A stretch of 64,000 bases of DNA, taken from Eledone cirrhosa. Its lineage: Eukaryota. The stretch is from NCBI GenBank assembly GCA_964016885.1, contig OZ024760.1, forward strand, positions 4,960,001 to 5,024,000. Reading direction: 5' to 3'. Position 1 is the first letter of the stretch. The number at the start of each line of letters is the position of its first letter. The notes beneath the pieces are model-generated. The model saw only the letters and a list, made by a program, of their open reading frames with translations, was not told where the DNA came from and did no database searches. Below are positions 33,501-39,500 of the stretch, one piece after another. A program made the translations under genes and the position numbers.

Positions 33501-36500
33501 ATATATATATATATATATATATATATCATCATCATTTTACGTCCACTTTTCCCTGCTTGCAAGGGTGGGACGAGAACTGATTCTGGCTTGATTTCTACAG
33601 CTGGATGCCCTTCCTAACACCAACCTCATTTACAGTGAGTACTGGGTGCTTTTTTGCCGTGGCACCTCCACGACCACTTTGCAGTGGAATGATATGGACC
33701 CCAGTCCCTATCATCTCATTTCTACAGCTGAGTAAACTGGAGCAATGTGAAATAAAGTGTCTTGCTCAAGGAAACAACACATCACCCGATCTGAGAATTG
33801 AACTCACAACCTTTCGATTGCAAGGCCAATCTTCTAACCACTAAGCCATGTGCTCTCTCTCTCTCTCTCTCTCTCTCTCTCTCTCTCTCTCTCTCTCTCT
33901 CTCTCTCTCTCTCTCTCTCTCTCTCTCTCTCTCTCTATACACACACACACACACACACACACACACACACACACACACAATATTAAATAAATGGAAAACT
34001 ATATTTATAAAACCATATTTATTTCATTATATATATTTCGGGGATATCATATTAACAATATGCTATGCCTTCATCAGACAAAATACAATATAAACAGTTT
34101 TATAGATAAATATATTCGACATACCGTAATAAACATCAACTTCATTTGAAGAGGTTTACGCTAGCAGTTATAAATATTACTAGTTGTAACCCAACAATTT
34201 TTAAATATAACTTTATATATATATATATATATATATATATATATATATATATATATATATATATATATGGAGGCACATGGCTTAGTGGTTAGAGCATTGG
34301 CCTTGCAATCGAAAGGTTGTGAGTTCAATTCTCAAACCAGGTGATGTGTTGTTTCCTTGAGCAAGACACTTTATTTCACATTGCTCCAGTTTACTCAGCT
34401 GTAGAAATGAGATGATAGGGACCGAAGTCCCTATGATTCCACTGTAAAGTGGTCGTGGAGGTGCCACGGCAAAAAAGCACCCAGCACTCACTGTAAATGA
34501 GGTTGGTGTTAGGAAGGGCATCCAGCTGTAGAAATCAAGCCAGAATCAGTTCCCGTCCCACCCTTGCAAGCAGGGAAAAGGGGACGTAAAATGAAAATGA
34601 AATGAATATATATATATAATAAATAAGAGAGACAGTTTTATTTGTACATCTTTATTTTATCATCTAGTTCGTTATACGTATTTCGAAGATGTAAGTTAGT
34701 CATATAATAACCTTACAGGTTACCTTCAGATGAATTATGTATTTTTTCCATTGATGTGCTACTGGTCCGACGTGTTGTTAACCTTGCCATCCAGTACTCA
34801 TATGGCTAGATTCCTCTTGTATGTGTGTATGTATATATATATATATATATATGTATATGTGTTTATCCTGGGATCAATCGGGGGTAACCAGAGTAAGTAA
34901 GGTACTCAATACATAGCAGAGTATAAATATTTAATATAGAAATGACTTCTACAGGACTAGAACTGTTTCATTCGGTAAAAATCATCAGGGCTTTCCTAAT
35001 GATTTCTACCAAATGAAAGTTTTGGTCCCGTAGAAGCCATTTCTATATTAAATATATATTTGTAAAATATCCAACTCTGGATATTTTGACAAAACATCTA
35101 TATACAAAATATTCTTTTTTCCTTTATTCGTTTTTTTTCTTTCTTTTAATTATTCTAGGATGAACTTGAGAAACTTGAGAAAGAAATTGAAAATCGATTT
35201 GCTAAGCTACCTACTGGCCAGATACGAAAAGGGGACATCTGTGCTGCTGAAGTTGAGGGCTGCTTTCACCGGGTGAAGGTTTTACAGATGAAGGAGAGAA
35301 GAAGAACTGCAAGTTTTATTCTTTTAATTTTGTGTTGGGTTTCTCTTCTTCCATGTGGCGCTTGCAACATTGTGTCACCCCCCCCCCCCCCCCATATCTC
35401 CCTCCTTTTTCTCCTTACAGCACCTTATTGAATTCAGGAGGTGGAAGAATGGAAATATGGCATTTATGCCTTTCCCAGATGAAAAATAGGCATTGAATGG
35501 GACTGGAAGTAAAAAAAAAAAAAATAAATAAAATAAAATTGGGGTTATGAGGTGTGATTCATTAAAATTATGAAATGTTAACATGCATCGAATGTGGAAT
35601 ATAAAAAAGCACTGTATGCATCATCATCATCATCATTTTACGTCTGCTTTTCCTTGCTTGCAAGGGTGGGACGGGTCCTTTTCAGAACAGCATCATCTCT
35701 CCATTCATCACGGTCCTTTGTCATTTCCTCTGTGAGCTTCAGCAATCTGTGGTCAGCTCTCACCACCTCCGCTCATGATTTTTGTGGTCTTCCTTCTACT
35801 GGGATTTCTTGGCACTTCTTTACCCAGTGGTCATCCTCCATGTGTGTATATATATATATATATATATATATATAACAAACACAGTGGGGAGGGGGCAGGA
35901 ATTAAAGGTGTCAGCTGATGTATGTGGGAGACATTTGAACTGTTATAAAAGGTCAAAGAATGGAAATTGGATGCTGAGAGTGTAGTGTCCTGTGTGTTTG
36001 GTGTGTGTGGTATGTGATACGCGTGTGTGTGGGTGTGGGTGGTATGTGTGATGCGCGTGTGTGTGGGTGGTATGTGTGATGCGCGTGTGTGTGTGGGTGG
36101 TATGTGTGATACGCGTGTGTGTGACTCCTGTTTATTCCACTACCACATGTACCAGTTATTTAAACAACAGTAACAGCCTGATTGTGAAATTAATATTCAT
36201 CTGGCTGAGTATTGCAGAAACGTTATATATATATAAAAATATGGGTAGGAGGCGAGACTGTGTGGTGACTGAAAACGAAGTGTTAGAAGGTAATCAGGAC
36301 ACAAACAAGAAAAGAAAAGTTTCCTTTCGTCAGCTGTTTTCTGCGGATCTTGGATGTTTCAGCGCTTAAAACAGAACATCAATCCATAGTGCGTCCATAG
36401 CCTTTGATCTATATATATATATATATATATATATGTATTGCATTTAAAATGATAGATGTCATGTTTCAGATAATCTCAAACATGCTCCTTATCACCTAAG

Positions 36501-39500
36501 AATAAGCTCAAAGAAAAATTCAAGGAATAAATCTGAGCATTTAATCATTACAAAATAATTGTTTCTACTTTAGGCACAAGGCCAGCAAATTACCCAGTGC
36601 ATTACTGGTACTTTATTTTATCGACCCCCGTAAGGATGAAAGGCAAAGTCAACCTTGGTGGGATTTGAACTCAGATCGTAAAGGGACGTAACTATGCTGG
36701 AAAGCATGGCGTCCGACCTTCTACCGATACTGCCAATCCACCATTACAAAATAATGAATGACATATATACATAATGATATAAATGTACAATAGAACATCA
36801 AACTTTAGCAGGAGATAATCTGAATGTAAGAACACATAGTTCATTACAGTATAATGTTAAAATTTAACTAAAATTTAAAATATATGTTCTATTGTTCGTT
36901 TATATCATTAGATATATATGTATGTATATATCTCATTCACTATTTTGTAATGATACACACACACGCACACGCACACGCACACACACTTACTTGCAAGCAG
37001 GGAAAAGCGGACGTAAAATGATGATGATGGTGACACACACACATTAACCCATACATATATATATATATATATATATATATATATATATATATATATATAT
37101 ACCTACATAGACGGAAAAGGACAATGGTAGTGCTAAGGAGGTGGTATTTAACATTGGACATGTGAAAAGCAGGAGAGAGGGAGCAAGGAAAGACAACCCC
37201 AACTGAATGCTAGAATATCGCTCTCTAATATTTCAACAAGATATTTCTGAATTTTAAAGTAGTTTTCTTGAGTTTTTTTTTTTTTATTTATTTATTTTTT
37301 TTTATGTCTTTCTACCTCTAGGAAAAACTTGAGAAAGAAATTGAAAAGTGGTTTCCTGAGCAACCTAATGGCCAGATACGAGAAGGAGATGTTTGTGCTG
37401 CTGAAATTGAGGGCTCCTATCATCGGGTGAAGGTTTTACAGATGAAGGAGAACAGAAAAAATGCAAGTCTTATTTTATTGGGTTTAGATGGAAATAAACA
37501 ATGAGAGGGCTGGATGATAGTGTTTGCATGTGTGTGTGTCTCATCGGTTCTGCTGCCAAGTATTCCAATTGTTTGAACAATGGAACGACCTGCTTGTGAA
37601 ATTAGCATGCAAGTAGCTGTGAATTTCACAAACACGTGCACCCATGACATACTTCTCAAGGAGATTCAGTGGTACAGTGCGTGACAAGGCAGGGCCTTTT
37701 GGTTTGCAGATGCATTTCAGTTTTGCTGGTGGCTATGTGGACTGGAACAACATAAAATAAAATGTTTTGCTGAAGGACATACTGGACTGGGAATTGACCT
37801 CACAACTTTTCCATTAAAGTAATTTGTTTATGCTTTTCTTTTCAGGTGGAATGCTTATTCATCGATCGTGGAGACTCTGCCTGTCTAACACTGGACCAGT
37901 TACGCATCTTTGACTCTAACTTGAATTATCTACCATTTCAGGTGAGAAAAATTTAATTTCATTGTATTCTTGGTTTACTATATCAAATGTACTAGTGTGT
38001 ATATCTAATATTTACCATATTTCCCGGCGCCGAAGACGCTTTGTCCTCGAGGACGCACCCTAATTTTGACAACCAAAAATTTGAAAAAAATAATAAACAA
38101 CCTTTGGCCTCCAGGACACATGGTAGATTTTTGTGACTTTTTTTAGAAAAAAAGTAGCGTCTTCGATGTCGGGGAAATACAGTAACCATTCCTACTTTTG
38201 ACGCAGGGCCAGCAATTATCGCAGTGTATTACTGGTACTTTATTTTATCAACCTTGTAAGGATAAAAGGCAAAGTTAACCTCGACGGGATTTGAACTCAG
38301 ACCGTAAAGGGCTGTAACTTTATGCTACAAAGCATAGTATCCGACCCTCTACTGATACACCAATCCACTGCTGAGACTGAGTCAAGAATATCTTTTCTGA
38401 ACACGTTATTAAAATAAATTGGATTACTTTGAATAAATAATGAATGAATATTACATAATTTATGTACTAAATTTCGTAGCTGTTGATTAGACATAAATAT
38501 TCTTATATATAATGTATTTTAAGATTCACTTCTTTAAAATTTTTAAATGTCTACACTTCCAGTTAGCGACCATACGCTATATCACATAGCTTATATAAAC
38601 ATTCATATATTTGCATTGTTATATAAGGTTTATATTTCCATCGCTAATTTTCTCCTTTTTTATAACATTTCACCGCATGCAGTTTATATATAATATTGTC
38701 TTTTTTAAATGTATCTCTTCGGGTGCTTTTCTGCTAGTATATATATAATGTTTGTTATTCTTTTTAGGTGGAATGTTTATTCCTTGACCATGGAGACTCT
38801 GATAATCTATTACTTGACCAGTTACGCTTACTTGACCCTAATTTGAATTATTTACCATATCAGGTGAGGAAAATTTGATTTCTTTTGTATTTTTTTGGTG
38901 GTGGTGAGATGGTTGTGGTAGTGAGGTGGTGGTGGTTGTGGTAGTGAGGTGGTAGAGGAGATAGTGGTAGTGAGGTGGTGGTGGAGGAGGTAGTGAGATG
39001 GTGGTTGTTGTGGCAGTGAGGTGGTGGTGTAGATAGAGATGGTGGTTGTTTGGTAGTGAGGTGGTGGTGGAGCTAGTGAGATGGTGGTTGTTGTGGTAGT
39101 GAGGTGGTGGTGAAGATAGTGAGGTGCTGGTAGAGATAGTGAGATGGTTGTTGTGGTAGTGAGGTGGTGGTGAAGATAGTGAGGTGCTGGTGGAGATAGT
39201 GAGATGGTGGTTGTTGTGGTAGCGAGGTGGTGGTGGAGCTAATGAGATGGTGGTAGTGGTGGCAGTGGTAAGGTGGTAATGGCGAGGAAGTGATGGTGAT
39301 GATGCAGAAGTAAGTGTTTGAGTGTTCATAGCCAATATTCAGCCACTTATGTATTAATTTCACAAGCAGGCTGTTGTCCCATTAACCAAACAGCTGGAAC
39401 ACTCATCAGTAGCACTGAGAGAGGTGTATATCTGTACATGTCCACTACGCTGCAGTCTGTTCACTTTATGGCATACTTGATGCAACCCTGTTAACCCTTT

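Follow-up and report, generated by a model that had tools for sequence, protein, structure and literature searches.

Do two neighbouring pairs of duplicated exons in an octopod gene provide alternative versions of one protein domain, or has one copy of each pair been left to drift? The gene is TDRD7 of Eledone cirrhosa, and the window, the whole 64,000-nucleotide (nt) stretch of DNA that we analysed (GCA_964016885.1, contig OZ024760.1, positions 4,960,001 to 5,024,000 of the forward strand), carries two versions of each of two consecutive exons, here called A and B, in the order A1-A2-B1-B2. An initial annotation, made from the DNA letters of this stretch, had proposed that splicing combines these exons into four equivalent variants of a Tudor domain. 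We find instead that divergence is asymmetric between the copy sets: judged by sequence comparison, A2 and B2 are ancestral-like, and A1 and above all B1 are derived. We tentatively favor, at a probability of roughly 0.45, a scheme in which transcripts would use one copy of each exon, with A2+B2 as the main, ancestral-type form and a derived minor form built on B1, probably together with A1.

TDRD7 is a scaffold of the PIWI-interacting RNA (piRNA) pathway, which silences transposons in the germline. The exons of the window match Octopus TDRD7 along its length, in agreement with the gene identity proposed before, and belong to a single TDRD7 gene. Together with four upstream exons they encode a LOTUS plus three-Tudor protein, the same architecture that Pfam gives for an Octopus ortholog (P0001; OST-HTH plus three TUDOR domains), so that the N-terminal LOTUS domain, the three extended Tudor domains and the best match to TDRD7 that characterize TDRD7/Tapas proteins are all present. 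The exon numbers 15 and 16 given to A and B in the initial annotation need correction, as within the window A ranks 16th among the coding exons, with four others upstream of the window.

Four intact exons encode one extended Tudor barrel

The coordinates and the order of the four exons were predicted correctly (Table 1). All four are open and phase 0-0, with lengths of 150, 141, 96 and 96 nt that are multiples of three, and their splice sites are kept: every acceptor is AG with a pyrimidine tract, and both B donors are GT. The two A exons have GC donors, the other 22 of the 24 donors that we scored being GT, and these A donors match U1 at 6–7 of 11 positions. Ortholog proteins place the A/B junction exactly at the GC donor site. 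GC donors are rare and are enriched in alternatively spliced genes (PMC2490688).

Over 141 aligned nt, A1 and A2 show 21 differences, with 14 amino acid (aa) changes and 4 synonymous-only codons, aa and codon counts that agree with those reported before; A2 also lacks 9 nt, in frame, at its start. Between B1 and B2, 19 of 96 nt and 9 aa differ. Several of the aa differences each come from one A/G change (two Lys/Glu, one Val/Ile and His/Arg), a pattern that adenosine-to-inosine editing could mimic in RNA data. As homologous neighbours that share a frame, have similar lengths and contain no stops, the copies share these features with mutually exclusive exons. The A1B1, A2B2, all-four and none-of-four products were translated and are open without stops, and the openness of the mixed one-of-each forms follows from phase 0-0. 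The flanking introns are in general unrelated beyond about 30 nt, as had been described, although two exceptions qualify that description. One is a match of 35 nt, marginal at p = 0.047, that lies upstream of A1 and A2 alike (35063–35097 / 37211–37244); the other is a piece of a repeat family, shared by the flanks and with a third copy at 39333–39418. A search of the 3.0-Gb E. cirrhosa genome for further exon A copies matched only the A1 and A2 places, and a DNA search with B2, which was insensitive in that it missed B1, returned B2 alone.

In the AlphaFold model of P0001 (mean predicted local distance difference test score, pLDDT, of 69.7, and about 72–91 over Tudor 2, the second Tudor domain), exon A corresponds to residues 635–684, comprising helix A and Tudor strands 1–2, and exon B to residues 685–716, comprising the rest of the barrel. 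The model has a helix at 634–650 and strands at 684–689 and 718–722, such that the start of exon A lies within a helix and a strand begins at the A/B junction. The exon ends are therefore embedded in the secondary structure of a folded domain, an arrangement typical of mutually exclusive exons (PMC5740500). A structural search with the same model returned extended Tudor domains (TDRD1, TDRD2, SND1 and Tudor) as the best matches, consistent with the earlier proposal that the exons build one extended Tudor barrel.

Table 1. Positions in the window of the duplicated exons, their neighbours and associated features
Feature	Position	Strand	Remarks
Exon A1, 50 aa, helix A and Tudor strands 1–2	35159..35308	+	Full length; cephalopod KWFPE stretch lost; GC donor
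Exon A2, 47 aa, ancestral-like residues	37322..37462	+	3-aa deletion in first turn of helix A; GC donor
Exon B1, 32 aa, Tudor strands 3–5, derived	37846..37941	+	His58Arg, Asp62Ala, Leu72Phe, Tyr81Phe (numbering over A+B); GT donor
Exon B2, 32 aa, ancestral-like	38768..38863	+	FLDHGD and LPYQ kept; GT donor
Upstream single-copy exon, staphylococcal nuclease (SN)-like strands of extended Tudor 2	32428..32528	+	GT donor; tblastn to P0001 residues 601–634, 91%; one copy in window
Predicted intronic hairpin just upstream of A1 pyrimidine tract	35053..35104	+	−13.7 kcal/mol, z −3.5; one match in own genome
Downstream exon, return to SN-like subdomain	40342..40454	+	tblastn to P0001 residues 716–754, 85%
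Young partial copy of 3′ half of exon 40342–40454 plus donor	41080–41206	+	95%; 2-nt deletion; without 5′ half and acceptor; non-coding

The two copy sets have diverged unevenly

To compare the copies, invariant sites were defined by five outgroup proteins, the ancestor was reconstructed by parsimony including cephalopod outgroups, and neutral change was simulated from this ancestor. A1 has changed at 4 of 20 invariant sites and B1 at 5 of 23, whereas A2 has changed at 0 of 19 (1 of 20 if the deletion is counted) and B2 at 0 of 23. Pooled, this amounts to 9 of 43 sites for A1+B1 versus 1 of 43 for A2+B2 (p = 0.015), the single change in the latter set being the 3-residue deletion. The rest of the gene has changed at 14 of 290 such sites in the window, or 27 of 373 with the upstream exons included, and A1+B1 exceed this gene background as well (p = 0.007).

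We then scored both sets on two profiles, a family profile made from 16 non-cephalopod TDRD7-like orthologs and a generic profile made from 869 Tudor domains. A2+B2 keep the family profile of TDRD7 Tudor 2 far better than the neutral simulation does (P = 0.0002–0.0005), whereas A1+B1 are indistinguishable from neutral on it (P = 0.31–0.38; B1 alone, 0.65). On the generic profile, A1+B1 score +0.8 versus a neutral −44 ± 16 (P = 0.0014, range 0.001–0.002), and the retention is also seen exon by exon (A1 alone, P = 0.01; B1 alone, P = 0.02) and with the number of aa changes held fixed (P = 0.0013). One-of-each splicing is plausible because both copy sets show such signs of coding constraint.

Synonymous changes between copies were counted without polarity, as no outgroup DNA was available, and the synonymous divergence of the two pairs (6/29.7 and 7.5/21.8 sites) is not clearly different. 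Gene conversion was not detected, the longest identical runs having P = 0.14 and 0.82.

One-of-each splicing and its alternatives

In the scheme that we favor, a transcript would take one A and one B exon, as the position of the exons in the fold suggests, and exclusivity would arise from splice-site competition, aided by the two weak GC donors, plus the folding cost of the wrong products. A1 and B1 would both be translated, consistent with their retained frame and fold score, and the derived B1 form is predicted to keep the barrel but to lack the conserved pocket histidine.

Several results count against this scheme. In a coarser test that simply counts class-breaking changes over 27 core columns, A1+B1 have 1 versus 3.4 expected (P = 0.11). 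The pairwise ratio of nonsynonymous to synonymous change (dN/dS), which the initial annotation had put forward as a check, does fall below 1 (0.49–0.71), yet this is significant only without transition weighting (p = 0.04; p = 0.16 with it). The neutral chance that A1+B1 keep both frame and splice dinucleotides, about 0.004–0.09 depending on the indel rate (no stop, 0.32–0.40; no frameshift, 0.03–0.55; splice dinucleotides, 0.39), speaks for the scheme, but this survival argument is inflated because the locus was picked for being intact. The ranking of A1 and A2 is less clear than that of B1 and B2, because the deletion has cost A2 a conserved Leu of helix A and because A1 by itself still fits the wider TDRD7 profile fairly well (P = 0.06–0.09). 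None of the devices that would enforce exclusion (frameshift, short intron, U12 mismatch or competing RNA pairs) was found: the reading frame survives joint inclusion, the copies are separated by introns of 2013 and 826 nt, and intron ends are GC/GT-AG. Finally, second copies in related species, another proposed check, did not turn up, in that protein and cluster searches covering annotations and transcript contigs found no A1- or B1-type residues in other cephalopods; genomic copies outside annotation may still exist.

With regard to splicing control, none of 45 region pairs, drawn from 10 short unique flank regions and each compared with 25 shuffles, gave a convincing docking/selector pairing (best p = 0.04, uncorrected). 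Many validated human mutually exclusive clusters also lack the enforcing devices named above (PMC5740500). The hairpin predicted upstream of A1 has no stable counterpart before A2, where the corresponding sequence is degenerate. Long inverted repeats with 92–94% identity lie in the introns around A1 (33163–33401; 33500–33853 with 34273–34625; 30732–30928 with 36545–36742), and could possibly form double-stranded RNA that affects splicing or is subject to editing.

The closest competitor to one-of-each splicing, which we rate as somewhat unlikely, is that A1 and B1 are silent or barely spliced duplicates, drifting and unbroken by chance, with A2 and B2 carrying the function. A1+B1 have indeed lost family-specific residues at about the neutral pace, with 17 aa changes versus 17.1 simulated and a profile drop of −77 versus −72, and dN/dS values near 0.5–0.7 are those expected for one constrained plus one free copy. 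The coarse core test falls short of significance, and a broken, non-coding half-exon copy lies downstream (Table 1), with other short local duplicates in the 104 kb examined. What such drift accounts for less well is that the generic Tudor score is kept in A1 and in B1 separately, and that both exons lack stops and frameshifts and retain both splice sites while their flanks can no longer be aligned.

A second alternative is that the copies are not exclusive and that several or all four are spliced together in frame. The initial annotation had held that inclusion of all four must scramble the fold, but this is not supported: the frame stays open, as it does with none of the four, and a barrel made of A2+B1 might sit within the strand 2–3 hairpin loop of A1+B2. 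The exon order could also come from one A-B insertion into an A-B intron, all four copies keep the generic fold score, the synonymous divergence of the two pairs, given above, does not clearly differ, the search for an exclusion mechanism over the 45 region pairs was negative, and many similar neighbouring exons are reported not to be spliced exclusively (PMC5740500). Nesting would, however, place A2 and B2, the two copies that keep the ancestral residues, in different barrels, and past the first 30 nt nothing unique in the A2-B1 intron aligns with the intron that follows A1 or the one that precedes B2. We consider this second alternative quite improbable.

Tudor 2 lacks an aromatic cage

Methylarginine reading requires a cage of four aromatic residues (PMC12526068; PMC3281842); PMC4210518 yielded no information on this cage. 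Four columns of the alignment hold, in order, Tyr in 782 of 869 generic Tudor domains, Phe/Tyr in 813 of 868, Tyr/Phe in 827 of 869 and Asn in 751 of 869. The mapping of columns to cage residues is one that we presume, in part, from SND1. Tudor 2 has His, Phe, His and Asp at these columns in all six cephalopod outgroups, with the second His also found in 14 of 16 other orthologs, and the first cage column holds Glu, Val or Ile in an uncertain alignment. Because the His/Phe/His/Asp set is common to all cephalopod outgroups, Tudor 2 is, judging from these residues, ancestrally cage-less, and it does not contain the four aromatics plus Asn of a methylarginine reader. The full cage motif is instead present in Tudor 1, whose exons are single-copy.

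Of the pocket differences that had been noted between copies, CFHR versus SYHR concerns the W position of the WYR motif and the residue before it, and the cage His is the same in both A copies, so this difference is not supported as one of the pocket; the His to Arg change in B1 stands, and is the only clear pocket change between copies. B1 additionally changes Asp62, which is Asp or Glu in 16 of 16 orthologs, and Tyr81, conserved in 15 of 16. Over A+B, the net charge is −1 for A1+B1 and −6 for A2+B2, compared with −5 to −8 for the outgroups.

These observations do not support methylarginine reading by the duplicated domain. That four freely combined variants tune methylarginine ligand specificity, as first proposed, is very unlikely: all one-of-each products keep the frame and one pocket position does differ (His/Arg), but the cage is incomplete in every cephalopod ortholog, the cage-complete domain is the one with single exons, and the divergence is asymmetric. 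Under one-of-each splicing, the exons would rather serve as a switch by which a contact between Tudor 2 and another protein is weakened or altered. In a more elaborate form, which we regard as unlikely, the switch would be coupled and tissue-controlled, and its two states, an ancestral one with the His pocket and a derived one that carries Arg and is less acidic, would turn on or off the contact of the cage-less Tudor domain with its partner.

Short-read contigs support the copies

Logan contigs from three DNA-like runs (one sample) cover A1, the region from A2 to B1, and B2, with 0 substitutions and at similar depth, and A2 and B1 lie together on one 763-nt contig. No exon joints were found among the rows listed for these runs, where the joint table is dominated by repeats, and the introns are covered. 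Because of this contig coverage, and with copies that differ by 15–20% and have unrelated flanks, an assembly artefact or two merged haplotypes, a check that the initial annotation had set, is highly improbable, even though no contig among the three runs connects A1 with A2 or B1 with B2 and the assembly may have been made from this very sample.

Origin of the copies and other features of the gene

One A/B version per species or cluster is seen in each of the 7 Octopus members, in 3 Argonauta proteins and in 12 of the 14 sequences that make up two Logan clusters, which are probably from squid or cuttlefish; the remaining 2 of 14 are unrelated 57-aa peptides. Because these annotated proteins and transcript contigs have a single version each, the duplication looks lineage-restricted. 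The three TDRD7-like proteins of Argonauta hians (P0008, P0009 and P0027) are on different contigs and are either gene duplicates or haplotigs.

The exon that follows B2 has been copied in part as well, and three consecutive exons therefore carry duplications; this partial copy includes about 75 nt of intron and adjoins a repeat element. Further short local duplications of non-coding DNA occur at 61611–61734 / 62099–62225 (94%) and 15499–15744 (85%), and several other near-unique duplicate pairs are found within the 104 kb examined. We considered an A-B-A-B origin and rejected it, as nhmmer detected no decayed B copy between A1 and A2. Two small independent duplications fit, and a single insertion of an A-B copy into an A-B intron also fits, the introns keeping no unique trace. 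Similar duplicates nearby suggest that the copies may have originated by short local duplications of 150–300 nt.

Elsewhere in the gene, a proline-rich 99-nt exon just before Tudor 2 (26300–26398) is present in isoform X1 of O. sinensis and absent from X2, and is likely a cassette exon. The segment at 6505–8016 (P0001 residues 241–305) corresponds to a helix-three strands-helix unit between two LOTUS-like regions that resembles a double-stranded RNA-binding domain. Among its orthologs, P0063 and P0090 score above the cut-off of the Pfam dsrm profile and P0010 scores weakly, and the profile also matches the plant DRB4 structure. The N-terminal LOTUS region is diverging too: the first four exons (contig positions about 4951242–4958445) have changed at 13 of 83 cephalopod-invariant sites, several of these changes being near the end of the LOTUS domain, and the lineage of the proposed His/Arg switch is thus also one with a diverging TDRD7 LOTUS domain. 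Two insertions resembling long interspersed nuclear element (LINE) retrotransposons lie inside introns on the minus strand (1995–5042 and 10370–13242), with long endonuclease/reverse-transcriptase-like frames identified by eye from motifs.

Relation to known systems

In Dscam1, duplicated exons encode halves of one domain. The octopod TDRD7 locus differs from the Dscam1 arrays in having only two copies per cluster, and docking/selector pairing was not found in the flank regions examined. Human tandem mutually exclusive exons (PMC5740500; PMC9741552) are likewise homologous neighbours of similar length and frame with ends inside the secondary structure of folded domains. Most of the human events are described as ancient (PMC9741552), whereas the octopod pair is young and apparently lineage-restricted; moreover, its two clusters stand back to back with no constitutive exon between them and jointly make up one barrel. 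In mollusc muscle myosin (PMC3912159), a single domain is tuned by a number of clusters with two exons each, of which only certain combinations occur (in scallop, 2a,3b,11b versus 2b,3a,11a). The myosin clusters are ancient and supported by transcripts, whereas the octopod case concerns a domain of a piRNA scaffold in which one copy set is shedding conserved residues.

With the cage-less extended Tudor domains described in PMC12526068, Tudor 2 shares its fold class and an incomplete cage; the function of most such domains is stated there to be unclear. Tudor 2 differs from them in having its own His-Arg and Asp-His-Gly-Asp signature, conserved across TDRD7-like proteins, as well as a natural duplicate that drops it. 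Our literature search, which had most subscription journals outside its reach, found no report of duplicated TDRD7 exons or of mutually exclusive exon duplication in cephalopods; for TDRD7 in octopus it turned up a review on the lens. Unannotated tandem exon copies are common and only some of them are expressed (PMC9013439). The locus is best described as a new candidate among known tandem duplicated exons, and as a putative case of mutually exclusive splicing.

If A1 and B1 are silent, the locus holds an ordinary pair of decaying duplicates. If they are expressed, it would add a recent example of mutually exclusive splicing, one whose two clusters lie side by side and whose coupling is directly testable. 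Expression of A1 and B1 would also turn the locus into a natural experiment on a Tudor domain without a cage: precisely those residues that TDRD7-like proteins conserve (His58, Asp62 and Tyr81) are gone from the derived copy, which would point to the binding surface of this class of domains.

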